A DNA stretch of 64,000 nt from Nibricoccus sp. (GTDB taxonomy: Bacteria > Verrucomicrobiota > Verrucomicrobiia > Opitutales > Opitutaceae). The DNA is taken from the NCBI GenBank assembly GCA_047602425.1, contig JASGHG010000001.1, forward strand, positions 4,768,001 to 4,832,000, written 5' to 3'. Below, in pieces: positions 20,993-42,444 of the stretch. Both the position numbers and the translations under genes were made by a program. The notes beneath the pieces are model-generated. The model was not told the DNA's origin. It searched no databases and saw only the letters and a list, made by a program, of their open reading frames with translations. Every line of letters begins with the position of its first letter. Position 1 is the first letter of the stretch.

Positions 20993-23900
20993 GTGCGCCG
21001 CCTGACTCCAGCCCGCTGTTTTCTCCTGGCCCTGTTGGTGGTCTTCGCCCCGTTTCTCCGTGCTGCCGAACTTCGCACCGATCAACTCCTCACCGACAAC
21101 TGGCGCACCCTCCTTGCCCCCGCTGATGCCGTTGGCTTCGAAAAACCTGCGTTCGACGATCGCGATTGGAGCCCTGTCAGCGTGCCGCACAACCATGACA
21201 CCTACCATGGCTACCACCAACTCCGCCATGGTAACCTCCATGGCACGGCATGGTATCGCACCAGCTTCACCATCGCATCGTCTGAGCAGGGGCGCCGCAT
21301 TTTTCTTTTCTTCGAGGGCGTTGGTTCCTATGCGACGGTTTGGGTCAACGGCCAACAGGTTGGGAAACACGCCGGGGGCTTGACCACGTTCACGCTCGAC
21401 GTCACTGACGCGATCGCTTTCGGCCGCGAAAATATCCTCGCCGTCCGCGCCGATCATCCCGCTGGCATTCGCGATCTGCCCTGGCTCTGCGGCGGCTGCG
21501 AACGCACCTATGGCACCTCGGAAGGCCCGCAACCTCTCGGCATCATCCGCCCCGTGCATGTTGTCAGCACCGCTCCCGTGCGCATCGAACCGTTCGGTGT
21601 TCATGCTTGGATCGATGGGCCCCAGTCCGACTCCGTCGCCACGCGCATCGACACCGAGGCGAAAAACTACAATGCCCGCACTGCGCAGATCACACTCCGC
21701 ACGACACTACTTGACCGCGAGGGCAACTCGGTTGTCGAAACGTCCTCTGCGCACACGGCCAATCCAGGCGAAACAGCCAAAATCGCTCAGACGCTCCCCG
21801 CGGTTTCGAACCTTCATCTTTGGTCGCCCGCGTCGCCGTACCTTTATACGATTCGGTCCGAAATCCTCATCAACGGACAGCCCGTCGATCGCTTTGAGAC
21901 GCCCTTCGGTTTCCGTTGGATCGCCTGGCCCAAGTCCGCCAATTCCAATCGCCGACGCCTGCTGGTGAACGGCGAACCGTTTTTTATCAACGGTACCGCC
22001 GACTACGAACATCTCCTCGGCAATAATTTTGCGTTCACCGACACGCAAATCACTGCGCGCGTTCGGCAGATCGAGGCCGCTGGCTTCAACGCCTTTCGCG
22101 ACGCACATCACCCGCACAATCTCCGTTTTCAACAGTACTGGGATCACGACGGTCTGCTTTGGTGGACCCAGTTTGGCGACTCTACTTGGTTCGACAATGA
22201 CGCTTTCCGTACCAACTGCAAAACGCTGCTCACCGAATGGGTGAAGGAGCGCCGCAATAGTCCGTCGCTCATCCTCTGGGGACTGCAAAACGAAAGCCTC
22301 CTGCCCACTGCCTTCGCCGAGGAATGCTCCGCTCTTATTCGCAAGCTCGATCCCACCTCCTCGACCCAGCGGCTCATCACCACGTGCAATGGCGGCACCG
22401 GCACCGATTGGGACGTTCCGCAAAACTGGTCGGGCACGTACAGCGGCGATCCCGAAAAATACGACGAAGATCTGCGCACACAGTCCTTAATTGGTGAATA
22501 CGGTGCTTGGCGTAGCCTCGGCCTGCACACCGAGGGGGGCTTCGTCGAAAAATCTCCGCTCAGCGAGGACCGTTTTTGCGCTTTGATGGAAATGAAAATC
22601 GCACTCGCCGAGAAAGCCCGCGCCGACGCCTGCGGCCATTTCCAGTGGCCGTTCGTTAGCCATGCGAATCCCGGCCGCAACTTCGGGGAACTCGGCGAAC
22701 AGCTCTACGACGGCATCCGCCCACTCGATCGCGTAGGCCCGGTGAACAACAAGGGCCTTTTCACCATTTGGGGCGAGCCCACCGATGCATTCTATCTCTA
22801 CCGGGCCAACTTCGCTCCGAAGGAAACTCAGCCGATGGTCTATATCGTTTCCCATACCTGGCCGGACCGCTGGACGTCTCCCGGCAAAAAATCCGGTCTC
22901 ATCGTTTATTCCAACTGCGACGAAGTGGAGCTGTTTAATGGTTCTCGTTCACTTGGCCGCCGCACACGCGCGGGCATCGGCACGCATTTCCGCTGGGACG
23001 ACGTCGAAATCGACTGCAATCTCCTCCGTGCCGAGGCTCGCGTGGGCAGTGCAGTCGTTGCCAGCGACGCGGTCTGCCTAAAACATCTGCCACCCCCAAT
23101 CGATGAGAAAAAAGAGTCGAAAAAATACAGCTTGGTCCAGCCCGCCCTCGGATACCAATATCTTTACCGCATCAATTGCGGTGGTCCGGCTTTTCGCGAT
23201 CCTTACGAAAATCTCTGGCTGGCTGACCGAGATTTCAACCCGGGCGATTCCTGGGGCGCAGTCTCTTGGGCCACCGAATTCGCGAATCTGCCCGCCGCTT
23301 TTGCCAGCCAAGGCAAAACTTACAGCGTGGTGACAGGTACACGAGCCAGCACGCTCTTCCAAACTTTCCGCTACGGCCGCGAAAATCTTTCCTACCGCTT
23401 CGCCGTTCCCGATGGCGAATATCTCGTCGAACTGTTTTTCGTTGAGCCGTGGTACGGCATCGGAGACGGCCTGAACTGCACAGGCTGGCGGGTCTTCGAT
23501 GTCGCGATCAATGGCCAGGTCGTGCTGCGGGATTTTGATCTCTGGCGCGAGGTCGGCCATGGCCGCGCCGTCAAGAAAACTGCCACCGCCCGCAGCGATA
23601 AGGGCGTGCTGACCATTTCCTTTCCGCGGGTCTCGTCCGGACAGGCCGTGATTTCCGCCATCGCCATCTCCACCAAAATCCCGCAGCCCGAGCCGAACCC
23701 TCCGCCACCAGCAATTATGTTGCTCAAAAGTCCGCCGCAATCCTCCGTCGAGACCCATCTCGATACCGGCGACCGCCACTATAGCGATGTACCTGGAGGC
23801 TTCACTGAATTGCCTTACGAACTCTTCGATGCCGATTGGCTTCGCACGCCGGCTTCCGCGACGACAGCATTGGAATTCAAGCTGAGTTACGATGCCGACG

Positions 23901-24805
23901 TTTGGGTTGCCTTGGACGAACGTATTTTACCCCTGCCTGGCTGGCTCGCCGGTTGGGAGCGCACTTCGCTCTCCCTGCGCACCAACGCTGCCGTTGGCTC
24001 AAAATTCGTTCTTTACCGAAAAGCCTTCGCCAAAAGCAGCATTGTTTCGCTCGGTGAGATTTCATCTGGTGTGATGCGCTACACGGTTTTCATCACGCGT
24101 GTGCTACCGCCGGCGCCTCCACAATTTGTCACATTATCGGACAACGCCCCTAACTGGCAGGCCGTAGGAAACGTCAAACTGGGCGTCCGTAGCGAGCTGC
24201 TCGGGTTCAGCATTGTCCGTTTTCCAGACAATCTGACTGGTGGCGATTTTATCCTGCCTTCTGCAGCCGCCCCTTCACCTCCACTTCGCCTGAGCGCCGA
24301 CGATCACGTAGAAATCACAGGCGCCTTCAAACCCGGCACCAAAGTAGGCGGTGGATGGATCGATACCAAACGAACCGCCACCGCCAACGACGGCGCAACC
24401 TTTGCCTTGTGGCGTCAACGTCTCGCCGCCGGAGCTTCCGTCGAATTTGCCTCAACCAACGATACACCACTTTTCGCCTTCGTTCGCGCCGTTCGTCCAT
24501 CCGTTACGTATAAAGCGCAAAAAGTCGCTGATAACCGGACTGAATGGACCATTCAGGTCGGCGTCGGCGATCGTTACGGCTTGAACTTCAAGTACCGTAA
24601 TCTTTCGGCCGCCCGCATCACCGCCACGCTCGAAATCATGCAAGCCAACGGTGACCTCCTGCGGACCGATCCGATCGAATTCCCGCCCACTGCCGAGTGG
24701 GCTATCGTCCGCACCCGTACCGGTGCCAGCATCAACGCCGGCACCTACAAATTCCGCCTGCTCGCTCCGCCCCAACTGCAACTCGAAAATCTGGAGGTAG
24801 AATAA
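20993..24805 (+). CDS. Secreted GH2 with malectin (CBM57) and further C-terminal domains; beta-glucuronidase-like
   Basis: FFEGVGSYA, LPWLCGGC, AFRDAHHP, WGLQNE, IGEYGA motifs; malectin YRINCGG...LFQTFRYG...VELFFVEP...RVFDV. Confidence 0.88.
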   Translation: MRRLTPARCFLLALLVVFAPFLRAAELRTDQLLTDNWRTLLAPADAVGFEKPAFDDRDWSPVSVPHNHDTYHGYHQLRHGNLHGTAWYRTSFTIASSEQGRRIFLFFEGVGSYATVWVNGQQVGKHAGGLTTFTLDVTDAIAFGRENILAVRADHPAGIRDLPWLCGGCERTYGTSEGPQPLGIIRPVHVVSTAPVRIEPFGVHAWIDGPQSDSVATRIDTEAKNYNARTAQITLRTTLLDREGNSVVETSSAHTANPGETAKIAQTLPAVSNLHLWSPASPYLYTIRSEILINGQPVDRFETPFGFRWIAWPKSANSNRRRLLVNGEPFFINGTADYEHLLGNNFAFTDTQITARVRQIEAAGFNAFRDAHHPHNLRFQQYWDHDGLLWWTQFGDSTWFDNDAFRTNCKTLLTEWVKERRNSPSLILWGLQNESLLPTAFAEECSALIRKLDPTSSTQRLITTCNGGTGTDWDVPQNWSGTYSGDPEKYDEDLRTQSLIGEYGAWRSLGLHTEGGFVEKSPLSEDRFCALMEMKIALAEKARADACGHFQWPFVSHANPGRNFGELGEQLYDGIRPLDRVGPVNNKGLFTIWGEPTDAFYLYRANFAPKETQPMVYIVSHTWPDRWTSPGKKSGLIVYSNCDEVELFNGSRSLGRRTRAGIGTHFRWDDVEIDCNLLRAEARVGSAVVASDAVCLKHLPPPIDEKKESKKYSLVQPALGYQYLYRINCGGPAFRDPYENLWLADRDFNPGDSWGAVSWATEFANLPAAFASQGKTYSVVTGTRASTLFQTFRYGRENLSYRFAVPDGEYLVELFFVEPWYGIGDGLNCTGWRVFDVAINGQVVLRDFDLWREVGHGRAVKKTATARSDKGVLTISFPRVSSGQAVISAIAISTKIPQPEPNPPPPAIMLLKSPPQSSVETHLDTGDRHYSDVPGGFTELPYELFDADWLRTPASATTALEFKLSYDADVWVALDERILPLPGWLAGWERTSLSLRTNAAVGSKFVLYRKAFAKSSIVSLGEISSGVMRYTVFITRVLPPAPPQFVTLSDNAPNWQAVGNVKLGVRSELLGFSIVRFPDNLTGGDFILPSAAAPSPPLRLSADDHVEITGAFKPGTKVGGGWIDTKRTATANDGATFALWRQRLAAGASVEFASTNDTPLFAFVRAVRPSVTYKAQKVADNRTEWTIQVGVGDRYGLNFKYRNLSAARITATLEIMQANGDLLRTDPIEFPPTAEWAIVRTRTGASINAGTYKFRLLAPPQLQLENLEVE

Positions 24806-24806
24806 C

Positions 24807-27233
24807 ATGCTCCGCCGTCTCGCGATTCTCGTTTTTTCTCTCGCAACTCTTTGCAGCCTCCACGCCCAAAGCCTGCGCGACCGCCTGCTCTGGGACGACC
24901 GCTGGCGCTTCGCCCTCGGCGACATTCCCGAAGCAAAAGAACCGGCCTTCAACGATTCTGCCTGGCGCCAGCTCCATTTGCCACACGATTGGAGCATCGA
25001 GGGCCAAACCGATCCCAATGCTCCAACCGCCGGTGGCGGTGGATTTTTCCCGACGGGCATCGGCTGGTATCGGCGCAGTTTCATTGCCCCTACCATATGG
25101 ATCGGCAAGCGCGTCCAGCTCGAATTCGAAGGCGTTGCCGGTCAGGTCGAAATCTGGCTGAACGGCAAACCGGTCGCCGCCCACCCTAACTCTTTCACCT
25201 CCTTCTTCGCGGATCTCACACCGCACCTCAAACACGGTCGCGATAACTTTCTCGCCCTTCGCGTCGACAATTCCAAGCAGCCCAACACCCGTTACTACAC
25301 CGGTTCCGGTCTCTACCGGCATGTGTGGCTCAACGTCACCGGCGTCATCCATCAGGCTCCGTGGAGCGTTTTCGTTTCTACGACAGAACTCACCGCCGAA
25401 CGAGCGACAATCGCCATACGGGCCAATATCAAAAACTTCAGCGATGCCCCCGCCTCCGTTGCCCTCCAAACCCAGGTTTTCGGCCCCGACGACCGCCCTG
25501 TTGAAATCGTTTCGGAAACCGTTCCGCCCGCTCTCCAACTAATTGGCGGTGGCAACCAGTTTGTAACGTATAACGTTACAATCAAAAATCCGAAACCCTG
25601 GCACCCCGACACACCAGTGCTCTATCACGCCATCACTCGCGTTCTTGTCAGCGGACGGGTGGTCGATGAAGTTTCCACGCCTTTCGGAGTGCGCACACTC
25701 AAAGTTTCCGCCGCTCGCGGATTCGAACTCAACGGCCAGCCTGTCAAACTCCGCGGCGGCAACGTCCACTCCGACCAGGGTCCGCTCGGTGCCGCCGCCT
25801 TCGACCGGGCCGAGGAACGGAAGGTTCAGCTTCTGAAATCCGCCGGCTACAACGCCGCGCGCACCGCGCATAATCCGGTCGCCCCTGCATTTCTGGAGGC
25901 TTGCGACCGCCTTGGCCTGCTCGTGATCGAAGAAGCCTTCGACTGCTGGGAAAAGGGCAAGGTTGCCGAAGACTACAGCAAATTTTTCAAGGATTGGTGG
26001 CAACGAGACATTGATGCCATGGTCATGCGCGACCGTAATCATCCGTCTGTGGTGATGTGGAGCACGGGCAACGAACTTTACGAAAGAGGCAACGCCAACG
26101 GTCTTCGCATTGCCACCGAACTCGCCGCCCGTATTCGTTCTCTCGATACCACCCGCCCTCTCACCGCTGGCATCAACGGCCTCGGCAAAGGTGGTGACTG
26201 GACGAAGCTCGACCCGCTTTTCGCCACGCTCGATGCCGCCGGCTACAACTACGAGCTCACGCGCCACGCGGACGACCACACCCGGCTTCCGGCCCGCGTC
26301 ATCTATTCATCCGAATCATATCAAACCGATACGTTTCAAAACTGGTCTACCGTCTTGAGCCAGCCGTACATCGTCGGCGATTTCGTCTGGAGTGCGATTG
26401 ACTATCTGGGAGAGGCTGGCATCGGCCGCATCTATCCGCCCAGCCAGACCGCTGCCGCCCACTGGATCGGCAACCACTATCCGTGGCACGGCGGCGCTTG
26501 TGGCGATTTGGATATTACAGGAATTCGCCGACCTGAATCTTACTACCGTGAACTTGTCTGGGGCGTCGGCGTGACGAAACTCTACGCCGCCGTCGTTCCG
26601 CCAACGTCCGCCGACCGTCCATGGAACACCACGCTCTGGTCCGTTCCACCCGCCGAGGCGCACTGGAACTGGACTGGCTATGAAGGAAAACCTCTCCAGG
26701 TCGTGGTTTTTTCTCGCTACGATGCAGTTCGGCTTCTGCTGAACGGAAAAAACGTCGGTGAGAAAAACACCAGTGCCGCGACGCAATACAAGGCCACTTT
26801 CTCAGTCCCGTACGCGGAGGGTAAACTCGTCGCCGTTGCTTTTGCCCAAGGCAAAGAGGCGGCACGCTTCACGCTTCAAACCGCCGAAAACGACGTGCAA
26901 CTCCGCCTCACTGCCGACCGCAAAACTATGCGCGCCGACTCTGAAGACCTCATTTTCATCAACGTCGAGGTCGTCGACAAAAATGGCACCGTCCATTCTG
27001 GCGTAAACCAATCCGTCCACTACACCGTCAGCGGTCCTGCCACACTCGCGGCCATCGGCAGCGCCGATCTTGCGTCCACCGAACCGTACAATGCCAACCC
27101 TCGCCGCCTCCACGATGGCCGGAGCCTCATTGTTCTCCGTAGCACCGCCGAACCGGGAAAAATCACCTTTACTGCCACCGCACCCGGAATGAAACCCGCA
27201 TCAGTCACACTCGAATCAAAGTCCAGCTTGTGA
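24807..27233 (+). CDS. Secreted GH2 beta-galactosidase-like hydrolase
   Basis: LPHDWSIE, RYYTGSGLYRHV, RTAHNP, RDRNHPSVVMWSTGNE, DYLGEAG motifs. Confidence 0.92.
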   Translation: MLRRLAILVFSLATLCSLHAQSLRDRLLWDDRWRFALGDIPEAKEPAFNDSAWRQLHLPHDWSIEGQTDPNAPTAGGGGFFPTGIGWYRRSFIAPTIWIGKRVQLEFEGVAGQVEIWLNGKPVAAHPNSFTSFFADLTPHLKHGRDNFLALRVDNSKQPNTRYYTGSGLYRHVWLNVTGVIHQAPWSVFVSTTELTAERATIAIRANIKNFSDAPASVALQTQVFGPDDRPVEIVSETVPPALQLIGGGNQFVTYNVTIKNPKPWHPDTPVLYHAITRVLVSGRVVDEVSTPFGVRTLKVSAARGFELNGQPVKLRGGNVHSDQGPLGAAAFDRAEERKVQLLKSAGYNAARTAHNPVAPAFLEACDRLGLLVIEEAFDCWEKGKVAEDYSKFFKDWWQRDIDAMVMRDRNHPSVVMWSTGNELYERGNANGLRIATELAARIRSLDTTRPLTAGINGLGKGGDWTKLDPLFATLDAAGYNYELTRHADDHTRLPARVIYSSESYQTDTFQNWSTVLSQPYIVGDFVWSAIDYLGEAGIGRIYPPSQTAAAHWIGNHYPWHGGACGDLDITGIRRPESYYRELVWGVGVTKLYAAVVPPTSADRPWNTTLWSVPPAEAHWNWTGYEGKPLQVVVFSRYDAVRLLLNGKNVGEKNTSAATQYKATFSVPYAEGKLVAVAFAQGKEAARFTLQTAENDVQLRLTADRKTMRADSEDLIFINVEVVDKNGTVHSGVNQSVHYTVSGPATLAAIGSADLASTEPYNANPRRLHDGRSLIVLRSTAEPGKITFTATAPGMKPASVTLESKSSL

Positions 27234-28741
27234 AACTTCGTCTATTTCCATCACTCCTCTTCGCTCTTCTCACCACGCTTGCCCGTGCCGAAGTCGCCTG
27301 CCCGGTCATTTTTTCCGACCACATGGTTCTCCAACGCGAGAGCCCTGTCGCCATCTGGGGAACGGCCACGCCTGACGAGCAAGTCACCGTGGAGTTTGCC
27401 GGCCAGTCAAAAACCGCCAAGACCTCAACCGATGGAAAGTGGCGCATCGATCTCGACGCCATGCCTGCAAGCAAAGAGCCGCGCCTGCTCACCGTTCGCG
27501 GCAACAACACGCTGCGTTTCGTCGACGTGCTTGTGGGTGAGGTCTGGTTTTGCTCCGGCCAGTCAAACATGGAAAAGCAGCTCGGTCCGCGCAAGGGCCA
27601 GAAGCCGACCGACAACTACGAGGAAGCCACGCGCCAGGCCAATCACCCGCTGCTCCGTTTGTATCAAGTGCCGCACTACAGCAAACCGACCGACAAAATT
27701 CTCAGCCTTCGCTGGGTCGCCTGCACACCCGAAACCGTGACCGCCGCCGAATTTTCGGCCGCTGGCTACTATTTTGGCGCCGAGCTTCTGCGCAAACTCG
27801 ACGTTCCCGTCGGCCTGATCCACTCCAGCTACGGCGGTACGATGATCGAGGCATGGACGCCACGCGAAGCATTCGAGCGCACACCCGAACTCGCTCCACT
27901 CCTTGCCAAACCCTATCAAGCCTGGGTCAAAGGCGTCCAGGCCACCGAGCTTTTCAACAGCATGGTCGCTCCCTATGTTCCCTACACGCTGCGCGGTTTC
28001 CTCTGGTACCAAGGCGAGTCAAACCTCATGGCCGGCGACACTGACATCTACACGCTCAAGCTTCGCACGTTGATCGAAAGCTGGCGCGCGCTTTGGACCA
28101 AACCCGACGCGCCGTTCTATTACGTTTTGCTCGCGCCCTTCCGTTACTCGCCACGTGATAAAGATCCCGCACAGCTGACCGCCGAGGCCCTCCCGCTTTT
28201 TTGGGAAGCGCAAATCGCCACCGCCAAAATCGTTCCGCACACTGGCTTCGTCGTCACCACTGACATTGGCAATCCGAAGGACATTCATCCGACCAACAAG
28301 CGCGGCGTCGGCCTTCGACTCGCCACGCTCGCCCTTGCCGAAACCTACGGATCGCCCAACACCGCAGCCCAAAGCCCACGCTTCGCCTCGAAGGAAATTT
28401 CCGCCAACAAAATTATTCTGCGCTTCTCTCCTGCTTCCCCAGGCCTGAAATCCCGTGACGGTAAACCGCTCGACGGTTTCCTCATCGCCGGCAGCGATAA
28501 AAATTTCGTCCCCGCCAACGCAGTGATCGAAGGCGACACCGTCGTCGTCACTGCACCCGCCATCGCCAGCCCTGTCGCCGTCCGCTTCGCTTGGTCAGAA
28601 GCCGCCAATCCGAATCTCGTCAATTCCGTCGGCCTACCGGTCGCACCGTTCCGCACCGACGACTGGCCGGTCATCTACCGGCGCCCAGCGCCGTCGCCGG
28701 CCACCGAATCTTCTTCTACGCCCAAACCCGCTTCCCCCTGA
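27230..28741 (+). CDS. Sialate O-acetylesterase (SASA) family carbohydrate esterase
   Basis: FSDHMVLQR, GEVWFCSGQSNM, WYQGESN, DIHPTNK motifs; signal peptide. Confidence 0.9.
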   Translation: MKLRLFPSLLFALLTTLARAEVACPVIFSDHMVLQRESPVAIWGTATPDEQVTVEFAGQSKTAKTSTDGKWRIDLDAMPASKEPRLLTVRGNNTLRFVDVLVGEVWFCSGQSNMEKQLGPRKGQKPTDNYEEATRQANHPLLRLYQVPHYSKPTDKILSLRWVACTPETVTAAEFSAAGYYFGAELLRKLDVPVGLIHSSYGGTMIEAWTPREAFERTPELAPLLAKPYQAWVKGVQATELFNSMVAPYVPYTLRGFLWYQGESNLMAGDTDIYTLKLRTLIESWRALWTKPDAPFYYVLLAPFRYSPRDKDPAQLTAEALPLFWEAQIATAKIVPHTGFVVTTDIGNPKDIHPTNKRGVGLRLATLALAETYGSPNTAAQSPRFASKEISANKIILRFSPASPGLKSRDGKPLDGFLIAGSDKNFVPANAVIEGDTVVVTAPAIASPVAVRFAWSEAANPNLVNSVGLPVAPFRTDDWPVIYRRPAPSPATESSSTPKPASP

Positions 28742-28747: not shown

Positions 28748-29827
28748 ATGTGGAAATCCAACTGGTCCGAAACCCAACAACGCTTCAAGAAATGGTGGAA
28801 CCGTGACGGTCTGCTCGTCGGCATGTGGGGCGCGCCGGAGACCGCCGCCTGCATTCACGAACAAGTGGCCGCCCCCGTCGTTCCCGCAACCATCGACGAG
28901 CGCTATTGCGATCCCGCCTATCGCGCTGCGCAGAACCACTACCGCCTCTCGCGTTCGATTTTCCCGCTCGACGTTCTGCAGACCGCCAGCCCCGACCTCG
29001 GGCCCGGCACGCTGGCGATGTACTGCGGTTCCGAACCTGGTTTCGCCGAGGGCACCGTTTGGTTTAATCCCTGCATCGAACACGTTGAAAATCCTGAGGA
29101 GTTGCCTCCCATTCGCTTCAATCCGGAAAGCCATTGGTGGAAAACCACGGAAGCCATCCTGCGCCAATGTCAGGAAAAAGCGCGCGGCAAATACTTCGTT
29201 GGCTGTCCGGATTTGATCGAGAACATGGACATCCTTTCATCGCTGCGTGGTGCACAGACGCTGATGATGGACATGATCGAGCGTCCCGAGTGGATTGAGA
29301 AAAAAATCTGGGAGATCAATGCCGCCTACTTCGAGGCCTACCAGCGTATCTACGACATTATCAAACTTCCGGACGGCAGTTCCGTCTTCGATGCATTCTA
29401 CGTTTGGGGACCAGGCAAAACCGCCAAACTTCAGTGCGACGCCTCCGCCATGTTCTCGCCCGACATGTACAAGCGATTCGTGGTGCCCGCGCTCACCGCT
29501 CAATGCGAGTGGCTCGACAATACCATCTATCACCTCGACGGCACGCAGGCCGTCTGCCACCTCGATACCTTGCTCTCTATCGAACCGCTCGACGCGATCG
29601 AATGGACGCCTCAGGCCGGCATCGAACCAGGCGGCAACAAGCGTTGGTACGACATGTACAAACGCATTCTCGCCGCCGGAAAATCCGTGCAAGTCGTCAA
29701 TGTCGAACTCAGCGACATCAAGCCGCTTCTCGACACGATCGGCACCAAGGGCGTCTACATTCTTATCCAATTCAAAGACCAAAAAGAAGCGGACCTCGCG
29801 TTGAAAATCCTGGAGCCCTACTACTAA
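28748..29827 (+). CDS. URO-D/MtaA-CmuA superfamily putative corrinoid-dependent methyltransferase
   Basis: DILSSLRGAQTLMMDMIERPE, QCDASAMFSPDMYKRFVVPAL, IYHLDG motifs; no signal peptide. Confidence 0.7.
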   Translation: MWKSNWSETQQRFKKWWNRDGLLVGMWGAPETAACIHEQVAAPVVPATIDERYCDPAYRAAQNHYRLSRSIFPLDVLQTASPDLGPGTLAMYCGSEPGFAEGTVWFNPCIEHVENPEELPPIRFNPESHWWKTTEAILRQCQEKARGKYFVGCPDLIENMDILSSLRGAQTLMMDMIERPEWIEKKIWEINAAYFEAYQRIYDIIKLPDGSSVFDAFYVWGPGKTAKLQCDASAMFSPDMYKRFVVPALTAQCEWLDNTIYHLDGTQAVCHLDTLLSIEPLDAIEWTPQAGIEPGGNKRWYDMYKRILAAGKSVQVVNVELSDIKPLLDTIGTKGVYILIQFKDQKEADLALKILEPYY

Positions 29828-29836: not shown

Positions 29837-30922
29837 ATGAAAAAACTTGGACTCGCCGTACTCGGCCTGGGTGAAGGCCGCAGCATCATTTCCGCCGGAA
29901 TCGAAAGCCCGCTCTGGGACGTCGTCTGGCTTTGCGATCTCGACGTCGCGCGCGGCCACGGCCGCATCGCTGAATTCCGCCTCGACCCCAAACGCTTCAC
30001 CACCTCCTACGAGCAGATTCTCGCCGATCCCGCCGTAGACGCCGTCGGCATCTACACGCCCGATCATCTGCACGCCACGCATGTCATTCAGGCGCTCGAC
30101 GCCGGGAAACACGTGATCTGCACCAAACCGTTTCTCAACGATCTCTCACAAGCCCGTGAGGTCTTCGCCGCGCAAAAACGCAGCGGCAAACAGGTGATGG
30201 TTGGCCAAAGCTCACGGCATTTCGCGCCCTTTGCCCGCCAGCGCGAACACTACCTCACCGGCGCTTTCGGCGAACTCATCACGATCGAAGCGCAGTATAA
30301 TGCCGATCACCGCTGGTTTCTGGAAAAACCCTGGGCAAAAAAACCTTCCTTCAAATGGCTCTTCGGCGGACTCAGCCATCCGGCCGACTTCATCCGTTGG
30401 TACCTGCCGGATGTTTCGGAAGTCATGGGCTACGCCGACCTCAGCCCGACCGGACGCGCTGGCGGACTCGTCAACCCCGACACCTTCCACTTCATTTTCA
30501 AATCCGCCACCAGCCGCATCGCCCGCGTGAGTGGCACTTACTCCAGTCCCACCGTCCCCGCCCAACGCGACAGCGGCATGAGTTGCATTCTCCGCTGCAC
30601 GCAGGGCGCCAGTCAGGCCGACTACCACGAACTTCGCTATTCCTGGAAAATCGGCGCACAGGCTGTAGTTGAAAATTTCGAAGGCGCCGAGGACTACTAC
30701 TTCCGCTTCGAAGGCCACAGCCACCACGCTGGCGAATATCAGAACTACATCGAGTACTTTGCCCGTTGCCTCGAACGTGGCGAGACGCCCAAACCCGACG
30801 TTCGCGAAGGCATCGTCACCATCGCCCTTCTACAAGCGATGGAAGAATCTACTACCGCCGGTCGCGCCGTGAAAGTTGCCGACATCCTCGCCCGCTATGA
30901 TTTAACCGAACTACTTGTCTGA
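29837..30922 (+). CDS. Gfo/Idh/MocA-family oxidoreductase
   Basis: AVLGLGEG Rossmann start, YTPDHLHATH, AGKHVICTKP. Confidence 0.88.
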   Translation: MKKLGLAVLGLGEGRSIISAGIESPLWDVVWLCDLDVARGHGRIAEFRLDPKRFTTSYEQILADPAVDAVGIYTPDHLHATHVIQALDAGKHVICTKPFLNDLSQAREVFAAQKRSGKQVMVGQSSRHFAPFARQREHYLTGAFGELITIEAQYNADHRWFLEKPWAKKPSFKWLFGGLSHPADFIRWYLPDVSEVMGYADLSPTGRAGGLVNPDTFHFIFKSATSRIARVSGTYSSPTVPAQRDSGMSCILRCTQGASQADYHELRYSWKIGAQAVVENFEGAEDYYFRFEGHSHHAGEYQNYIEYFARCLERGETPKPDVREGIVTIALLQAMEESTTAGRAVKVADILARYDLTELLV

Positions 30923-30948
30923 GGTAGGGACGGACCGCCGGGCCGTCC
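30923..30948. repeat. Single GTAG-type REP half element
   Basis: GGTAGGGACGGACCGCCGGGCCGTCC, identical to the left arm at 55245 and one mismatch from 61804. Confidence 0.8.
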
Positions 30949-30983
30949 ATAAAAAATTCCGCGCCCACTTCCCCGCCCCCAAA

Positions 30984-32330
30984 ATGACCAAAACCTCGCT
31001 CACCACCCGCTTCAGCTACGCCCTGCCCGACATCGGCGGGCAACTTCTCTTCGGGTGGATCATGGGCTACCTGCCCTACTTCTACGCCAATGTCTACGGC
31101 CTCACCGCCGCCGCCGCGGGCACGATTGTCTTTATTGCGCGCTTCGTCGACGCGATCGATGCGCCAGTTTGGGGCGTTATTTTCGACCGCACCCATAGCC
31201 GCTGGGGAAAATGCAGACCATGGTTCCTCTGGCTTTGTGGGCCTTTTGCGTTGTTCGGCTTCCTTTCCTTTTTCACCCCGGACCTTGGTTATGGCGCCAA
31301 GGTCGCCTATGCCGCGATCACCTACATTGCCTTCAATGTCATCTATACTGGCATCAACACGCCCGTCACCTCCATCCTCCCTGCGCTGACGACTTCGCCG
31401 CACGAACGTGTAACCCTAACGACATTTCGGATGTTCGGTTCGAAGTTGGGTTTCGCCATTGTGAATTTCACTGGCATCGACTTCGCCCGCAGGATCGGCA
31501 ACGGCAACGATCAGAAAGGATTCATGATCGTGCTATCCATCTTCGCTATCGTCTCGGTTGCCATGTTTCTCCTCGCGTTTCGCAACCTCAAGGAAGTGGT
31601 TAAAGTCGAAGAAAAACCCCAGCCCGTGGCGGGAGGCTTCAAAGCGCTGCGTGGAAACTGGCCCTGGCTGATCATCTTTGCGAGCAGCTTTCTTTTTTGG
31701 ATCGGCTTTATCGCACGCGTCACCGTCGCACCGTTTTTCTTCGAGGATGTCTTGCATCGCCCCGACCTAATCCGTCCCGCCAATCTCCTCGATTTCGCCT
31801 CGCTTGCAACCGCGCTCCTTTTGCCGTGGATCTGCCGCGCCATCTCCAAGCGCAACGCATGGTTGATCGGCCTCGTCGGCATGGTCGCCGGGCAGCTGAT
31901 CATCGCTGTCGGCGTGAGCCAGAATCTCTCTGTCTCGTGGATCATGGCCGGCTGGGCGGTCGGTTTCATTTTCAGTGGCATGGCGATGGCGATGCCCTTT
32001 TCCGTGCTCTCTGAAAGCGTGGACTTCGGCGAATGGAAAACCGGCATTCGCGCTGCTGGATTGCTTACGGCCATTGGTGCGTCGTTCTGCTTGAAGGCCG
32101 GCGCTGGGATCGGCGGGGCACTTCCCATGTGGATCATGGACGCGGCAGGCTGGGTTGCGAAACAACCGCTTTCGCCCACCACCACAAATGCGATGATCTT
32201 CTCTGCAGTCTGGCTGCCGGCCCTCTGCCTTGGTCTCGCCGCCGTGCCAGTCTTGTTCTATCAAAAATACGAACGCATGGAGCCGCGTATCCAAGCCAAG
32301 TTGACCGCACGTCGGCAAAACGCGTCCTAA
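30984..32330 (+). CDS. GPH-family (glycoside-pentoside-hexuronide) MFS transporter
   Basis: ARFVDAIDAPVWG..DRTHSRWGKCRPW, ERVTLTTFRM, DFGEWKTGIR motifs. ATG 30984. Confidence 0.9.
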   Translation: MTKTSLTTRFSYALPDIGGQLLFGWIMGYLPYFYANVYGLTAAAAGTIVFIARFVDAIDAPVWGVIFDRTHSRWGKCRPWFLWLCGPFALFGFLSFFTPDLGYGAKVAYAAITYIAFNVIYTGINTPVTSILPALTTSPHERVTLTTFRMFGSKLGFAIVNFTGIDFARRIGNGNDQKGFMIVLSIFAIVSVAMFLLAFRNLKEVVKVEEKPQPVAGGFKALRGNWPWLIIFASSFLFWIGFIARVTVAPFFFEDVLHRPDLIRPANLLDFASLATALLLPWICRAISKRNAWLIGLVGMVAGQLIIAVGVSQNLSVSWIMAGWAVGFIFSGMAMAMPFSVLSESVDFGEWKTGIRAAGLLTAIGASFCLKAGAGIGGALPMWIMDAAGWVAKQPLSPTTTNAMIFSAVWLPALCLGLAAVPVLFYQKYERMEPRIQAKLTARRQNAS

Positions 32331-32342
32331 TCTTTGCCCGTC

Positions 32343-34820
32343 ATGTTCATCGTCGAAAGTCATCGCGAATCCATCGTTTTTGCCAGCGGCGAACGTCGCT
32401 TGCGCATCGCGTTTGTCACGCCGGCCGTCGCCCGTATCACGCTCACTGAGGGCAAGCCTTTCTCCGAAGCGCCCAGCTATATCGTGCAACATCGCGCGCC
32501 CGCCGCGTGCTTTCGACTCTCCGAAGAACAAAATGCCTTCACACTTTCGACCTCCGCGCTTCAGCTATCGGTAAATAAAGCCACCGGTGCGATCACCTAC
32601 CGCGACTCCACTGGCAAAATTCTCCTCAACGAACCAGCCCGCGGAGGTAAATGGCTGACGCCAAAAGACGTTTTCAAAAACGTCTACGCCAAGAACGCCA
32701 AGGCCGCCACCGGCCAGAGCATCGACGGCGCGCGCGCCTCGGCCACTGACTGCGAACGCGTTTTTGATCGCAAGGCCTTCGAGGCGAAACTCGAATTCGT
32801 CTTCAGTGAGAACGAAGCGCTTTTCGGCCTCGGTTCGCATGAGGAAGGCTACGGAAACCTCCGCGGTAAATCCCGCGAGCTCTACCAGCAAAACATGAAA
32901 GCCGTCGTGCCTTACTTCGTCTCGACGAAAGGCTACGGCCTCCTGCTCGACTGCAGCTCATTGATGACATTTCACGACGATGCTTTCGGCTCTTACCTCT
33001 GGGCTGATGTCGTCGACGAACTGGATTTCTATTTCATCCACGGCGAAAACTTCGACGCCGTCACCCGCGGCTACTACGAACTCACCGGCAAACCGCCGAT
33101 GCTCCCGAAATGGGCCTTCGGCTACGTCCAGTCGAAGGAGCGCTATGTCAACGCCTGCGAAATGCTCGACGTAGTCCGCGAGTACCGCCGCCGCCAGATC
33201 CCACTCGATTGCATCGTGCTCGACTGGAAATCCTGGCCCAACGGCAACGGCTGGGGCCAGAAATCCTTCGATTCCGAACGCTTCCCTGCCCCCAAAGCTT
33301 TCATCGACGAACTTCATGCCCTCGGCGCCAAGCTCATGATCTCGATCTGGCCGATCATGACCGGCGATTGCCCAAACCAAGTCGAGTTGCGCGAGCGCGG
33401 CCTCATGCTCGGTAATCAGTCGACCTACGACGCTTTTTCCGACGAGGGACGGCGCATCTACTGGGAGCAGGCCAATCGCGGCCTCTTCGCCCACGGTATC
33501 GACGCGTGGTGGTGCGATTGCACCGAACCGTTCGAAGCTGACTGGACCGGCGCGGTAAAACCCGAAGTTCACGCGCGCCTCGCCATCAACACCGAACAAT
33601 CGCAAAGGTACATCGACGCCGGCCAGATCAACAGCTACTCGCTCCTCCACTCGCAAGGCATCTACGAAGGCCAGCGTCGAGCAACGAATACGAAACGCGT
33701 CATCAACCTCACCCGTTCCTCCTACGCCGGCCAGCACCGTTACGCGACTGTGACTTGGTCAGGCGACATCTGCGCGACGTGGGAAACACTGCGCCGATCC
33801 ATCCCGGAAGGTCTAAACTTTTGCGCGACCGGCGAGCCGTATTGGACGGTCGATATCGGCGGCTTCTTCATCAACAACGACCCGAAGCTCTGGTTTTGGC
33901 GCGGCGACTACCCCTCAGGCTGCCGCGGACTGACGCCGATGACCGCGCTCGAACCCGATCCAGCCGACACCGGCTGCAAGGACCTCGGCTTCTGGGAACT
34001 CTACGTGCGCTGGGTGCAGTACGCCGCATTCCTTCCAATGTTCCGTTCGCATGGCACCGACGCCGCGCGAGAGATCTGGCGCTTCGGCGAACCCGGCACG
34101 CCTTTCTACGACGCCATCGCGAAATACATCCGCCTTCGCTACCAATTCCTTCCCTACATTTACTCCGTCGCCGCCCAAATCACCCTCAGCAGTCGAGCAA
34201 TGCTACGTGCCGTCGCCCTCGACTTTCCCGACGACCCTCGCACTCACGATCTCACCGACCAATTCATGTTTGGCCCTGGGTTGATGGTTTGCCCCGTGAC
34301 CCAGTCGATGTACTACGGCCCGAATTCAACGCCCCTTCCATCCGACACCCCAAAAAACCGCACCGTCTACCTCCCCGCCGGACGTCAATGGTACGATTTC
34401 TGGACCAACAAAATCTACGAAGGCGGCCAGACGATCACCGTCGCCACCCCGCTCGATATCATCCCGCTCTTCATCCCCGCCGGTACTATTCTGCCACTTT
34501 CCGGCGAATCCATTCAGCACACCGGCGAAACAACGAGTACGCCTTATGAAATCCGAATCTACGCCGGAGCCGACGCCTCGTTCGACCTTTATGAAGATGC
34601 GGGCGACGGCTATGATTATGAAACCGGCGTCTATTCAATCATACACTTGTCATGGAATGAGTCGCGCGGCGAACTCACGGCATCGCCTCGTCATGGCACC
34701 TTTCCGCAAGCTGAGATCGGTCGTGAATACCGGATCGATTGCATTTCTCACGACGGGGTACGACGAGAAATATGCGTTTACGATGGCAGTGAACTAACCA
34801 ACCGTAGAACTCGCGACTAG
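32343..34820 (+). CDS. Cytoplasmic GH31 alpha-xylosidase-like glycosidase
   Basis: PKWAFGYVQSKERY, IPLDCIVLDW, WWCDCTEP (nucleophile), WSGDI (acid/base), FRSHG; no signal peptide. Confidence 0.9.
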   Translation: MFIVESHRESIVFASGERRLRIAFVTPAVARITLTEGKPFSEAPSYIVQHRAPAACFRLSEEQNAFTLSTSALQLSVNKATGAITYRDSTGKILLNEPARGGKWLTPKDVFKNVYAKNAKAATGQSIDGARASATDCERVFDRKAFEAKLEFVFSENEALFGLGSHEEGYGNLRGKSRELYQQNMKAVVPYFVSTKGYGLLLDCSSLMTFHDDAFGSYLWADVVDELDFYFIHGENFDAVTRGYYELTGKPPMLPKWAFGYVQSKERYVNACEMLDVVREYRRRQIPLDCIVLDWKSWPNGNGWGQKSFDSERFPAPKAFIDELHALGAKLMISIWPIMTGDCPNQVELRERGLMLGNQSTYDAFSDEGRRIYWEQANRGLFAHGIDAWWCDCTEPFEADWTGAVKPEVHARLAINTEQSQRYIDAGQINSYSLLHSQGIYEGQRRATNTKRVINLTRSSYAGQHRYATVTWSGDICATWETLRRSIPEGLNFCATGEPYWTVDIGGFFINNDPKLWFWRGDYPSGCRGLTPMTALEPDPADTGCKDLGFWELYVRWVQYAAFLPMFRSHGTDAAREIWRFGEPGTPFYDAIAKYIRLRYQFLPYIYSVAAQITLSSRAMLRAVALDFPDDPRTHDLTDQFMFGPGLMVCPVTQSMYYGPNSTPLPSDTPKNRTVYLPAGRQWYDFWTNKIYEGGQTITVATPLDIIPLFIPAGTILPLSGESIQHTGETTSTPYEIRIYAGADASFDLYEDAGDGYDYETGVYSIIHLSWNESRGELTASPRHGTFPQAEIGREYRIDCISHDGVRREICVYDGSELTNRRTRD

Positions 34821-37387: not shown

Positions 37388-37415
37388 GATCACGTTGCGC
37401 TAACGCAGCGTGATC
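37388..37415. terminator. Hairpin between convergent genes
   Basis: GATCACGTTGCG-CTAA-CGCAGCGTGATC, a 12-bp stem with one G-T pair. Confidence 0.5.
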
Positions 37416-38451
37416 ATACGCAGCAACCGCAGCGCATGAAGGCGTCGACCTTCCCGAGGATCGCCTGTTCGCTGCCGGGTACGCTGAGAACGTCGCATTC
37501 GCTGCCCAGAATAAAGGGATGTCCGACGGCGCGCATTTTTGCCAGCAACTCTCCAGCCATGCGTTCAACTTCGGCAATCGTAAGTTGTGCGGCATAGAAA
37601 CGTTTTGTCGGTAGATTGCCGTATAACACCGTGTCCTTCGGAATATAGGCGGCGTCCTCCCACAATTTCCGTGAACTCCCCAAGCTGATCATGGCTGCGC
37701 CCAAGCTGGCGAAGCGTTTGACCATGCCGTCGGTGAGTTCGCCACAATCGTGGAAAATCAAATCGACACCACGTTGCGCCAACCTCTGTGCGATGCGCCG
37801 CATCGGCGTCATGACGAACCGGTCGAAAACGGTAAAATCGAGCTCCAACTGTTTCGGTGAGAAATATACGACATTCGCGGCCGGTTCGCACACGATCACT
37901 GCCTTTGCCCCCGCTGCGATTTGTGCATCGAGATATTCGGCAATCACCATTTCGCCAGCATGTAATGCCGCTTCGACCAAAGCCACGTCGGGTTCCTCGG
38001 TTGCCGTCGCACCCGTTCCGGCGAGAAATACCGGCGTGATTGGATCTGCCAGTAGTTTCGTCATGAGCGAAAAAGGCCCGATCGACATGCCCATGGGAAC
38101 AAGTGTCGAAGTTTTTGCCACATGCGCGATAGCCTCGCATGAGGCCTTCATGCGGGGCGTCAACGCGACGGACTTCGGAAGGTCTGGAGGTTCGTTAAAA
38201 TGAAACTGACTGATTTCCGTCTTGGGAAGACCCATGGCCGACAAGAGGGCCTCTTTTTCCAGCGTGAGATCCATCAATGGAATGGCCAGTGGCGTCTTAA
38301 AACGCTCGGCCGTTTCTATCAAAATCGCCCCGAGTCGTTTCCCATCGTGAAGAATGGTCTCTGGTTCGGTATGCTGATGCAGCACGAGATGGGTGCCGAT
38401 CGGCATCCGCAAGCCGGAGGCCGCGAGGTCCAGATAGAATTTTCTCTCCAC
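37414..38451 (-). CDS. URO-D/MtaA-family methyltransferase (Zn-thiol type)
   Basis: GPFSL, VCEP, IFHDCG (H-x-C), YGNLP, ILGSECD; directly downstream of a corrinoid protein gene. Confidence 0.8.
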   Translation of the reverse strand: MERKFYLDLAASGLRMPIGTHLVLHQHTEPETILHDGKRLGAILIETAERFKTPLAIPLMDLTLEKEALLSAMGLPKTEISQFHFNEPPDLPKSVALTPRMKASCEAIAHVAKTSTLVPMGMSIGPFSLMTKLLADPITPVFLAGTGATATEEPDVALVEAALHAGEMVIAEYLDAQIAAGAKAVIVCEPAANVVYFSPKQLELDFTVFDRFVMTPMRRIAQRLAQRGVDLIFHDCGELTDGMVKRFASLGAAMISLGSSRKLWEDAAYIPKDTVLYGNLPTKRFYAAQLTIAEVERMAGELLAKMRAVGHPFILGSECDVLSVPGSEQAILGKVDAFMRCGCCV

Positions 38452-38460: not shown

Positions 38461-39102
38461 TCAAGATTTTTCGCCGACCAGTTTCAACGCAATATCGACC
38501 GCGCTGGCCGCATCGAGGCTGTAGCCTTCTGCGCCGATTTCGTTGGCGTAATCCTGAGTGACAGGCGCTCCGCCGATCATCACTTTCACATTCAGGCCGG
38601 AAGCTCGCACAGCATCGATGGTTGTCTTCATGGCCGGCATGGTCGTTGTGAGCAGCGCCGAAAGTGCGATGAGCTGCGCACCATTCGTTTTCGCGGCATC
38701 GATGAATTTCGCCGGCATCACATTCGTGCCGAGGTCAACCACGTTGAAATTCGCGCCTTTGAGCATCATGGCAACGAGATTTTTGCCGATGTCATGTAGA
38801 TCGCCTTGCACGGTTCCTATCACCACCGTGTACTTCGGTTTGATGCCGGCTTGGGCAAGCAAGGGTTCGAGGATCGTCATGCATTCTTTCATCGCCCGCG
38901 CCGCGATGAGCATTTCAGGCACAAAGACCTCGTTGTTCTTAAATTTTTCGCCAATGGCGCTCATGCCGGGGACAAGGCCTTGTTCGACGATGTCGAGGGG
39001 CTTCTGCCCGGCTTGAAGGAGCTCTTGCGTGAGCTGCTTGGCTTCGTTGCGCTTGCCGGCTTGAACGGCGTCACTGAGGGGGTGGAAATTGCTCGTGGAC
39101 AT
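38461..39102 (-). CDS. Corrinoid (B12-binding) protein, MtaC/MtmC-like
   Basis: FVPEMLIAARAM cap domain; GTVQGDLHDIGKNLV (DxHxxG), SALLTTTM, GGAPV. Confidence 0.95.
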   Translation of the reverse strand: MSTSNFHPLSDAVQAGKRNEAKQLTQELLQAGQKPLDIVEQGLVPGMSAIGEKFKNNEVFVPEMLIAARAMKECMTILEPLLAQAGIKPKYTVVIGTVQGDLHDIGKNLVAMMLKGANFNVVDLGTNVMPAKFIDAAKTNGAQLIALSALLTTTMPAMKTTIDAVRASGLNVKVMIGGAPVTQDYANEIGAEGYSLDAASAVDIALKLVGEKS

Positions 39103-39182
39103 GGAAACCATCTTACCCAACTCATCCGCGGAATTCTTGTGCTTCCGGCGGATTCTTTTGTGCTCGTGTGCGGCAAAAACGA

Positions 39183-40790
39183 CTATGGCAACGACAAGTG
39201 ATCCAGGTAGCAGTTCTCGAAGCCGCCTTGTTCATTAAGCTCCAGAATGACGGCGTTGATGCGAAGCTTTTCCATCTGAACCAGGGCGTTTTTATCCAAT
39301 GCTGCCAATATCGCGCCGCCCAGCGATGTGTTGCCCACCACCTTGATCTGCTCCCGCGTAAAACCAGGCAAAAGGCCAATGGCAATGGCATGATCGACAT
39401 CGATGAACAAACCAAAACCGCCCGCCAGATACAGGCGACCGACGTCCTTCGCCGCTAATCCCGCAGCCTTCAGCAATGTTTCTATTCCGGCGCCGATCGC
39501 TGCCTTCGCTTGCAAGAGCGCCGCGACATCTGCTTCGTTGATGCACAAATCGCCGGCCAGTTTGAACGTCCGGCCACCCGGCGTGGCCGTGCATTTGTTT
39601 TTCGGCAACTGGCTCCATGTCGTGGCATCGAAACGTCCGTTGGCCAGCAGCAATCCCGATGCGCGTCCCTGCGCAAGAAAATCGACGTAGGCGGTACCGC
39701 ATAGTCCCGGCGCATCCTCGGCTTTTCCACCGCCGATCGTTTCAAAGTCAAAAACGAATTCTTCACCACGGCTAATCGTCACGTGCGAAATAGCGCCGGT
39801 TTGAGCTCGTGTGCCGGCGAGCAGGCCGGCGCCTTCAAATGCCGGTCCCGCAGCGGTCGCACAACCGAACAATCTGCCACCGGCATATAGAACTATTTCG
39901 CCATTTGTGCCGATGTCCACCAACAGGCTCGGTTTCTCATCGCAAAACATTCCCGTCGCATACACCCCCGCTGAAAGGTCCGCGCCGACATACGCGGAAA
40001 ATCCAGGCAGGAGCACCACGGGACAATCGCCTCTCAGTCCAAGCTCCGTGGTGTGAAGACTTCGGCTCGCGATAAATTTTGGCGTAAATGGAACCACACC
40101 CAATCCTTCCGGATCCTCGCCAGCCAGCAAATGGAGCATCGTTGTATTGCCCGCCACCATACAACCGGCGATTTGGTCGATGCTGCGGCTGGCTTCACGA
40201 CAAACTTCTGCAACCAAGGGCGCGATCGTTTCCAGCAGTACGGCTCTTTGCATCTGCTCGCGTGCTCCAGGTATTCCCGCCGCTACGATGCGCGTGATCA
40301 CATTGTCCCCGAAACGGATTTGCGCGTTAAAATCCCCTGCCCTGGCGAGCACTTCGCCGCGTAGCAGATCGACGAGCGCGACTGCGACGGTAGTGGTGCC
40401 CACGTCCACGGCCAGTGCAAGATTCCTGCCTTTTTCGAAAAGTTCCCAAGGTGGATCGAGCACCACTGGCATGTTGATCTCAAATGAATCGCCAACCTGT
40501 GGTTCAGCTTCCAATCGCGCATGATCCGGCACGCGCACCAGAAGGTCGTCGTTCGCTTCCAGTTTGATCTCACAGGACTTCACCGGCTGCAAAGTCTCTT
40601 CGCCCGTGATTCCGGACCGAACCAATTCAACCAGACAGCCATGACACCATCCTTGTTTGCCGCATCTCGTATTCAGTGGCATGCCGTGGGCCGCCAAAAC
40701 ATCCGATAGCACCGGACGGTCGGCGTCAGCCAGCGAGACCGTGCGCAGAACCACACTCTTCGCGTTTTGAATGGTTAGTTTAACCGGCAT
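39183..40790 (-). CDS. ASKHA/DUF4445 reductive activator of corrinoid enzymes (RACE) with an N-terminal 2Fe-2S domain
   Basis: CGKQGWCHGC...KSC; VDVGTTT, GNTTMLH, DIGTNGE, TAAGPAFEG, YLAGGFG. ATG 40790 overlaps the upstream stop. Confidence 0.92.
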   Translation of the reverse strand: MPVKLTIQNAKSVVLRTVSLADADRPVLSDVLAAHGMPLNTRCGKQGWCHGCLVELVRSGITGEETLQPVKSCEIKLEANDDLLVRVPDHARLEAEPQVGDSFEINMPVVLDPPWELFEKGRNLALAVDVGTTTVAVALVDLLRGEVLARAGDFNAQIRFGDNVITRIVAAGIPGAREQMQRAVLLETIAPLVAEVCREASRSIDQIAGCMVAGNTTMLHLLAGEDPEGLGVVPFTPKFIASRSLHTTELGLRGDCPVVLLPGFSAYVGADLSAGVYATGMFCDEKPSLLVDIGTNGEIVLYAGGRLFGCATAAGPAFEGAGLLAGTRAQTGAISHVTISRGEEFVFDFETIGGGKAEDAPGLCGTAYVDFLAQGRASGLLLANGRFDATTWSQLPKNKCTATPGGRTFKLAGDLCINEADVAALLQAKAAIGAGIETLLKAAGLAAKDVGRLYLAGGFGLFIDVDHAIAIGLLPGFTREQIKVVGNTSLGGAILAALDKNALVQMEKLRINAVILELNEQGGFENCYLDHLSLP

Positions 40791-42284: not shown

Positions 42285-42444
42285 GCTCGCACATTCAATA
42301 CAGATGGTGGTAACTCCACCAGAAAAATGGCGGTGACCAGTGACATTGCGACGCCCTTCCCGCCTCGGGACGGCAACCGTCCGACAAGGCTTAGATTTTT
42401 GCTGGCTTACCCCCCTTTGTCTGGGGTTAGTTGGAGGTGCTGGT

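Follow-up and report, generated by a model that had tools for sequence, protein, structure and literature searches.

A four-gene module proposed to process the 2-O-methyl-xylosyl-fucose disaccharide of rhamnogalacturonan II in Nibricoccus sp.

Within a 64,000-nucleotide stretch of the genome of Nibricoccus sp. (family Opitutaceae; assembly GCA_047602425.1, contig JASGHG010000001.1, positions 4,768,001 to 4,832,000; here called the window), four adjacent genes encode, in this order, a putative methyltransferase (MTa), a Gfo/Idh/MocA NAD-binding protein (Gfo), a GPH glycoside:cation symporter and a GH31 alpha-xylosidase. All four are present as open reading frames (ORFs) where a previous sequence-only reading had placed them. 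This module probably handles the disaccharide 2-O-Me-Xyl-alpha-1,3-Fuc that GH141 enzymes release from rhamnogalacturonan II (RG-II), and we hypothesise that it constitutes the intracellular end of the breakdown of RG-II side chain A.

In the proposed scheme, the GH141 of this genome would free the disaccharide and the GPH symporter would bring it into the cell, where two routes would be available. In route 1, MTa would transfer the O-methyl group to the Co(I) form of a corrinoid protein that is kept active by the activase RACo, a second methyltransferase (MTb) would hand the methyl group on to a thiol acceptor, and the GH31, whose O2 pocket looks ordinary by sequence, would then hydrolyse Xyl-alpha-1,3-Fuc. 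Xylose would enter metabolism via xylose isomerase, and fucose probably via an oxidative route, since no FucI was found in the genome. In route 2, Gfo would oxidise C3 of the methyl-xyloside, and elimination with loss of the C2-H would free fucose, requiring neither demethylation nor an O2-H. Route 2 would form the core that is conserved; route 1 would be added to it and would allow the xylose and the methyl group to be recovered as well. We give the scheme as a whole a probability of about 0.5. What is observed is the set of genes, their folds and their conserved residues; all the substrates and the order of the steps are inferred. The sequence-only reading had the disaccharide imported and then hydrolysed by the GH31. 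The module genes and a GH141 are indeed present, but the GH31 is probably not the cutter of the methylated linkage, and it is dispensable.

Bacteroides thetaiotaomicron cuts 20 of RG-II's 21 linkages and secretes 2-O-Me-Xyl-alpha-1,3-Fuc (bioRxiv 10.64898/2026.03.13.711244), which agrees with the earlier statement that this is the only linkage left uncut. The same preprint describes a pathway for the disaccharide in other gut microbes as unconfirmed as of March 2026. No enzyme cleaving or demethylating the disaccharide was found in the literature searched, to which subscription journals and bioRxiv supplements did not belong. In B. thetaiotaomicron the disaccharide is freed by the GH141 BT1002, with catalytic residues D523 and D564 (PMC10154630). 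It had been suggested that a GH141 be sought elsewhere in the Nibricoccus genome, and there is a single one, a full-length orthologue of BT1002 (E 6e-201; C1:3529535-3531487) located 1.27 Mb from the module. The catalytic Asp pair of BT1002 aligns with its D550 and D591, with a constant numbering offset of 5, and by this likeness it would free the same disaccharide. The genome resembles the RG-II degradome of B. thetaiotaomicron (BT1002, BT1020, BT1012) in having a BT1002 orthologue, a homologue of half of BT1020 and an apiosidase-like gene; whereas B. thetaiotaomicron secretes the disaccharide, the Nibricoccus genome has a module placed to consume it.

Gfo and its association with GH141

Gfo (29837..30922, + strand) belongs to a distinct family and is a candidate C3-oxidising enzyme. 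Gene distributions were compared in 151 genomes of the family, using cut-offs of at least 62% for the GH31, 60% for MTa, 60% for Gfo and 72% for a PhyH-like dioxygenase discussed below. Weaker matches were dropped (GH31, 2 genomes; MTa, 2; Gfo, 1; the query for a second, MeXyl31-like GH31 lineage, 1; PhyH, 13). Of these genomes, 8 contain the GH31 orthologue, 4 the MeXyl31-like GH31 and 9 MTa. GH141 and Gfo occur in 29 each and, unexpectedly, 28 genomes have both. The homologue of the N-terminal half of BT1020 in the window, which we take to be a GH143, was used as a control gene. It occurs in 37 genomes, 27 of which have both GH141 and Gfo, one GH141 only, none Gfo only and nine neither. As the nine genomes with GH143 but without GH141 all lack Gfo, we reject Gfo as a general marker of RG-II use: it follows the enzyme that produces the disaccharide. 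Gfo had previously been treated as a bystander, and in fact its presence goes with that of GH141.

The surroundings of Gfo were examined in 20 of its 29 loci. GPH adjoins Gfo in 14 of these, GH141 in 3, a MeXyl31-like GH31 in 2, and a GH31 of the module type or MTa in none. An obligatory partnership of Gfo with MTa is rejected, as 7 of the 10 MTa genomes found in a search of 50 GH31-bearing genomes have no close Gfo.

The best PDB profile match of Gfo is DgpA (E 9e-25), the DxxxH histidine of DgpA1 aligning with H181. K97, H181 and H296-H297 are invariant in 41/41 family members, and the HHAGE loop that contains H296-H297 is retained down to 32% identity. Long Gfo matches yielded no informative fusions, only unrelated partners that are probably chimeras. 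In NAD+-dependent glycosidases, oxidation at C3 is followed by loss of the aglycone, and deuterium is taken up at C2; among them, ArSqgA uses Lys107, His193 and His321, and its family GH188 stands in where a GH31 sulfoquinovosidase is absent (PMC10755693). Gfo is similar to GH109 and GH188 (SqgA) in its fold and in the placing of a Lys and a His, and by position alone a His of the C-terminal loop may correspond too; it resembles GH188 in that its distribution fills in where GH31 is missing. C3 oxidation followed by elimination would suit a 2-O-methyl glycoside, because the proton removed is that of C2 and not that of O2. From these likenesses Gfo may itself cut the methylated Xyl-Fuc bond, a prospect that we rate somewhat short of even.

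A number of points weigh against this assignment. The position of H296-H297 is comparable to that of His321 in ArSqgA and His404 in AmGH109A, a match by position only. None of the 41 Gfo members matches the Pfam domain Glyco_hydro_109_C at E<=1, this domain being carried only by lower-ranked Atlas clusters, and Gfo has Gly177 where ArSqgA has the C4-binding Glu189. The 60 PDB matches listed for Gfo do not include a SqgA structure. As to the distribution, Fisher p values overstate the associations, the genomes being related and not independent, and in the 19 Gfo-only genomes YicI-type GH31s and demethylases of unknown kind were left uncounted.

Route 1 could also operate with a Gfo that is no glycosidase. 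Gfo would then be a dehydrogenase acting on a product of the disaccharide, either L-fucose or 2-O-methyl-xylose, or else a 3-dehydrogenase working together with a distinct lyase. The Gfo-only genomes would cut the bond with another enzyme. Its best matches (DgpA, GFOR, and inositol and levoglucosan dehydrogenases) point this way, as do the missing FucI and a TIM-barrel-like gene (labelled by eye, with no Pfam match) near Gfo in some loci. We nevertheless consider this unlikely. Gfo and GPH stand alone in most of the 20 loci, sharing only transporters and secreted carbohydrate-active enzymes (CAZymes) as partners; Gfo is missing from the GH29-type loci that release fucose; its HHAGE loop persists in distant members; and neither a BT2158-type system nor an orthologue of the TIM-barrel-like gene was found in this genome.

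The GH31 and its partners

The GH31 (32343..34820 from an ATG, + strand, 825 aa) is predicted to be cytoplasmic. Judged by the best 9-residue Kyte-Doolittle (KD) hydropathy and by homologue length, it has no signal peptide, as had been claimed earlier. In nine other CAZyme-like ORFs of the window the N-terminus shows a basic residue, an aliphatic stretch (best KD 2.4-3.5) and an Ala-type cleavage site, whereas the GH31 enters its N-terminal beta-strands straight away, with no leader. Its 120 closest homologues are 794-844 aa long and cover 95-100% of it; a KD of at least 2.2 occurs in 9 of them, within the same RLRIxF strand and not in a leader.

The nearest relatives of solved structure are BoGH31A, XacXyl31 and CjXyl31A (TM 0.82-0.84, structural identity 27-29%). 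In BoGH31A the sugar is contacted at O2 by Asp553, Arg613 and Asp630, at O3 by His709 and at O4 by Asp441 (PMC4967831). The equivalents in the GH31 are D392, R458, D475, H570 and D294, invariant in 84/84 aligned homologues; D392 and D475 align with the catalytic motifs of BoGH31A (nucleophile and acid/base Asp), again in 84/84. W295 is likewise invariant in 84/84 and aligns, with a numbering offset of 21, with W453 of XacXyl31, the Trp that bars C6 sugars (PMC8245568). By sequence, then, the enzyme belongs with the alpha-xylosidases, as the earlier note supposed, and its O2 site looks ordinary. It shares with the three relatives the TIM barrel, the Asp pair, the O2, O3 and O4 contacts and the C6-barrier Trp. 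It differs from them in having no leader and no PA14 domain (alignments skip about 150 residues, and the model shows no such domain). The genes around it are of the fucose/RG-II and methyltransferase kinds, instead of the xyloglucan genes that go with the BoGH31A kind. A YicI-type xylosidase is encoded separately in this genome, so that isoprimeverose could be covered without the GH31 of the module. With PA14 absent and this enzyme available, xyloglucan or isoprimeverose is rejected as the main role.

Among the 28 genomes with both GH141 and Gfo, a coupled GH31 is found in 7/7 that have MTa or the PhyH-like gene, against 2/21 that have neither, and one of these two GH31 genes is an orphan and the other is broken. 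The broken copy lies in L015 (genome G519); there and in L004 (G542) the GH31 is an orphan next to urease-accessory-like genes, and both genomes retain Gfo and GH141 and have no MTa. The GH31 is dispensable: 19 of the 28 genomes have neither coupled GH31 lineage and no candidate demethylase.

The surroundings of the GH31 were surveyed in 80 homologue loci, and a tree of 79 rows was built with FastTree, leaving out the frameshifted loci L015 and L043. The partners found were GPH in 20 loci, GH141-like in 18, GH29 in 18, GH95 in 15, MTa in 14 and FucU in 7, and at least one of GH141-like, GH29, GH95, MTa and FucU occurs in 57/80. In a second set, the 80 metagenome MTa loci described below, a GPH orthologue stands beside MTa in 28. 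In the GH31 survey, MTa is found ahead of the GH31 in two distinct clades of this enzyme, one of Verrucomicrobiota and Planctomycetota, where the order is MTa, GPH, GH31, and one of Chloroflexota, where MTa comes directly before the GH31. Locus L027 has Gfo, DUF1638, RACo, corrinoid protein, MTb, MTa, GPH and GH31 in a single run, and in L016, L018 and several metagenome loci a GH141 gene lies alongside in divergent orientation. The coupling of methyltransferase, GPH and GH31 seen in the sequence-only reading recurs across phyla, MTa lying next to the GH31 in three of them.

The slot beside MTa may be filled by either of two xylosidases. In 80 metagenome MTa loci the module-type GH31 lineage occurs in 13, the MeXyl31-like lineage (E 2e-204 to 5ZN6, and about 30% identical to the module GH31) in 18, and both in none; either is present in 27 of the 32 loci with MTa of at least 65% and at least 3 kb downstream. 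Two unrelated ordinary xylosidases in one slot are what demethylation first predicts. The earlier note had left open whether hydrolysis comes before or after demethylation. Because the residues at O2 are canonical and the GH31 travels with a demethylase among the GH141 genomes, the second order is the better supported: the GH31 probably cuts Xyl-alpha-1,3-Fuc once the methyl group has been removed, and probably does not cut the methylated linkage.

MTa and GH29 occur together in no GH31 locus (0 of the 14 with MTa; 18 have GH29). MTa-type, GH29-type and Paenibacillus GH141-like loci have one ABC binding-protein family in common (51-61% identity). Arabidopsis arabinogalactan protein (AGP) bears unmethylated alpha-Xyl-1,3-alpha-Fuc (PMC3965541), and the exclusion of MTa and GH29 fits methylated RG-II on the one hand and unmethylated AGP on the other. 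The GH31 relatives without a methyltransferase probably act on the AGP disaccharide. In L212:1345-13277 and L211 there are GH31 relatives (42-45%); the copy in L212 has a leader and lies in a GH43-GH95-GH29-GH31-GH127 run, which fits AGP Xyl-Fuc-Ara side chains.

The reverse order, with the GH31 itself as a 2-O-methyl-alpha-xylosidase and MTa or the PhyH-like enzyme demethylating free 2-O-methyl-xylose afterwards, has facts of its own to draw on. Three residues near the active site, C391, C393 and N455, are invariant and specific to the GH31 clade. The search for MTa, Gfo and PhyH covered 50 of the 80 loci; among these 50 GH31-bearing genomes, just 10 have an MTa orthologue and 40 have none. 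In five Acidobacteriota metagenome-assembled genomes (completeness unstated) GPH, GH31 and GH141 are adjacent, the GH141 being 42-44% identical to the Nibricoccus copy, and the search revealed no orthologue of MTa, Gfo or PhyH there. These observations weigh against demethylation first, and the Acidobacteriota arrangement allows either a GH31 that cuts the methylated bond directly or the use of the unmethylated AGP substrate. The GH31 as a methyl-xylosidase is nonetheless a quite improbable reading. It is opposed by the canonical O2 contacts, by the MeXyl31-like ordinary xylosidase that substitutes in 18/80 MTa loci and by the 7/7 against 2/21 contrast, while unmethylated AGP Xyl-Fuc would explain the loci without a methyltransferase.

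The GH31 can also be likened, by description and not by sequence, to the GH31 alpha-1,3-xylosidases of corn xylan breakdown, BACOVA_03422 and Herbinix alpha-Xylp_1211. Some relatives in its clade lie in loci that match the setting of these enzymes; for the module enzyme the aglycone would be L-fucose. The Paenibacillus loci L064, L066 and L069 contain GH8, GH43s, the module GH31 lineage, GH95 and an AKR-lactonase-ZnADH trio, this last presumably for L-galactose use. Such Bacillota loci fit the use of corn glucuronoarabinoxylan, from which alpha-Xylp_1211 takes Xyl off Xyl-alpha-1,3-Araf (PMC4491172, PMC7176698).

The methyl group

MTa (28748..29827, + strand, 359 aa) has no match in Pfam or NCBIfam, and PDB sequence searches name no family for it either. 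Its AlphaFold model (pLDDT 93) has MtaA of M. mazei (4AY7) as best Foldseek match (E 6e-9, identity 11-12%), followed by UroD enzymes, and its H262-x-D264 motif is invariant. This fold agrees with the label of putative methyltransferase given to the gene before. The UroD superfamily includes O-demethylases (PMC10418091), and on the evidence of the model MTa is a candidate corrinoid-dependent O-demethylase (MT1) that would act on a 2-O-methyl xyloside.

A corrinoid operon, absent from the earlier note, lies on the opposite strand past one peptidase gene, its corrinoid protein and activase being 2.6-7 kb downstream of the module. It starts with an AraC-type regulator (41502..42617, - strand, true start uncertain) and continues, all on the - strand, with a DUF1638 protein (40790..41515), a recurrent partner of corrinoid genes that also accompanies MTa in loci L027, L204 and L207; the corrinoid reductive activase RACo (39183..40790; RACo_C_ter and Raco_middle; AcsV at E 1e-94, below its cut-off); a methyltransferase corrinoid protein (38461..39120) with B12-binding domains (MtgC/MtbC-type NCBIfam matches at E 1e-49 to 1e-56, below the cut-offs); and the UroD-fold methyltransferase MTb (37414..38451; Pfam URO-D, weak MtaA and MtbA matches). 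MTb is contiguous with MTa in L027 and L204 and has the motif H234-x-C236...C319, a type that we take to be the zinc site in MtaA. It is a candidate thiol-type MT2. CobQ and xylose isomerase are present in the genome. A classical folate acceptor was not found: the genome yielded no separate folate MT2, Pterin_bind picking out just one DHPS-sized and one MetH-like ORF (tentative labels), and no FTHFS. With these absent and the H-x-C...C motif present in MTb, a thiol is the likelier methyl sink.

Of the components of corrinoid O-demethylase systems (OdmB/VdmB type), the UroD-fold methyltransferase, the corrinoid protein and the reductive activase have counterparts here, and the methyl-corrinoid:tetrahydrofolate methyltransferase II has none that was found. 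Further differences are that MTa has no Pfam match and is only 12% identical to MtaA, and that the donor would be an aliphatic sugar methyl ether. The locus also stands apart from the type 1 mlp clusters, whose MtaA-like proteins have >25% identity to SCMTs (PMC10418091), given the 11-12% of MTa to MtaA and the weak NCBIfam matches of MTb. Our literature search, made without subscription journals, found no description of the corrinoid demethylation of an aliphatic sugar methyl ether.

A PhyH-like dioxygenase, present in 17/80 metagenome MTa loci, is a candidate oxygen-dependent sugar O-demethylase by its position. In L029 its gene comes just before GPH, GH31 and a GH141-like gene, in a genome without MTa. 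It occupies the MTa slot, or a place next to it, ahead of a GH31 in L029:5763-14454, L205:5350-13260, L232 and L233, accompanied by a TIM-barrel-like gene and an AraC gene in L029 and by a TIM-like gene in L232 and L233. A search by tblastn found none in the Nibricoccus genome; a profile search with PF05721 gave no control match.

Further UroD-fold methyltransferases occur nearby. About 9-13 kb upstream of the window (C1 about 4754850-4758820; L082:6851-10822) two of them surround a RhaT-type transporter and a RhaM-like mutarotase, a candidate block for the import and demethylation of free 2-O-methyl-L-fucose. In L124 and L134, several more UroD-fold methyltransferases cluster with MTa, as do RhaM, RACo, DUF1638 and a corrinoid protein; we propose that this is a shared hub for several methyl sugars.

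It is least probable of all that the GH31 serves some other alpha-xyloside (AGP Xyl-Fuc, Xyl-alpha-1,3-Araf of corn xylan, isoprimeverose) and MTa some other methyl ether (2-O-Me-fucose, a methyl-uronate), their adjacency reflecting a shared plant-wall habitat: the Bacillota relatives in corn-xylan-like loci and the three further UroD-fold genes in the locus would agree with this, but the MTa-GH31 or MTa-GPH-GH31 order recurs in three phyla and two GH31 clades, GH141 lies divergently next to it in several loci, YicI is available for isoprimeverose, and the upstream RhaT-mutarotase-methyltransferase block suits free methyl-fucose better.

Genomic setting and significance

By its gene content the window holds an RG-II-type locus. 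It encodes an apiosidase-like (GH140-type) enzyme (5095..6798, - strand; Pfam Apiosidase, DUF5060 and DUF5605), the homologue of BT1020 used as control above (19166..20986, + strand; 5MQR residues 39-607, E 1e-116; Pfam Beta-prop_BT_1020) and a run of secreted GH2-malectin, GH2 and SASA-type esterase proteins (20993..28741, + strand) that leads into the module. The gaps between esterase, MTa, Gfo, GPH (30984..32330 from an ATG, + strand; TIGR00792, 331 bits against a cut-off of 231) and GH31 are 6, 9, 61 and 12 bases. Such spacing would fit a single operon that runs from the GH2, GH2 and esterase genes on through the four genes. Genes for GH78, GH2, GH106 and GH95 lie just upstream of the window on the same contig.

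Between the module and the corrinoid operon there is a secreted S9 peptidase-like protein (34904-37378); homologues (34-44%) occur in 7 of the 20 Gfo loci of relatives, hinting at a role in RG-II use, for example as an esterase. A block at 13240-19151 encodes an Fe-ADH, a DHDPS-like aldolase, a DtnK-like kinase, PdxA2 and an SSS transporter; parts of it recur by RG-II genes in L029 and L229, and it possibly serves the catabolism of an RG-II acid sugar. Elsewhere in the genome there are a DUF4450 gene (C1:1254816), a domain that we believe to be linked to GH139, and a set in which a fucose-isomerase-like gene comes ahead of two transketolase-like halves and then a kinase (L213:9920-14880; labels by eye), presumably resembling an apiose isomerase route.

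Taken at its widest, the scheme would have Gfo founding a new NAD+-dependent glycoside hydrolase family (2-O-methyl-alpha-xylosidase), MTa as a corrinoid sugar-ether demethylase and the PhyH-like enzyme as its oxygen-using counterpart, together completing RG-II breakdown by two parallel routes; this extended form we hold only tentatively. The module offers three soluble candidate enzymes for a disaccharide that B. thetaiotaomicron already secretes pure. If the scheme is true, the RG-II degradome would be completed and a reagent for RG-II sequencing gained, and a new glycosidase family may result. B12-dependent demethylation, so far a matter of aryl ethers, could also be widened to those of sugars, which would bear on how one-carbon units flow out of plant litter where soils and sediments are anoxic.

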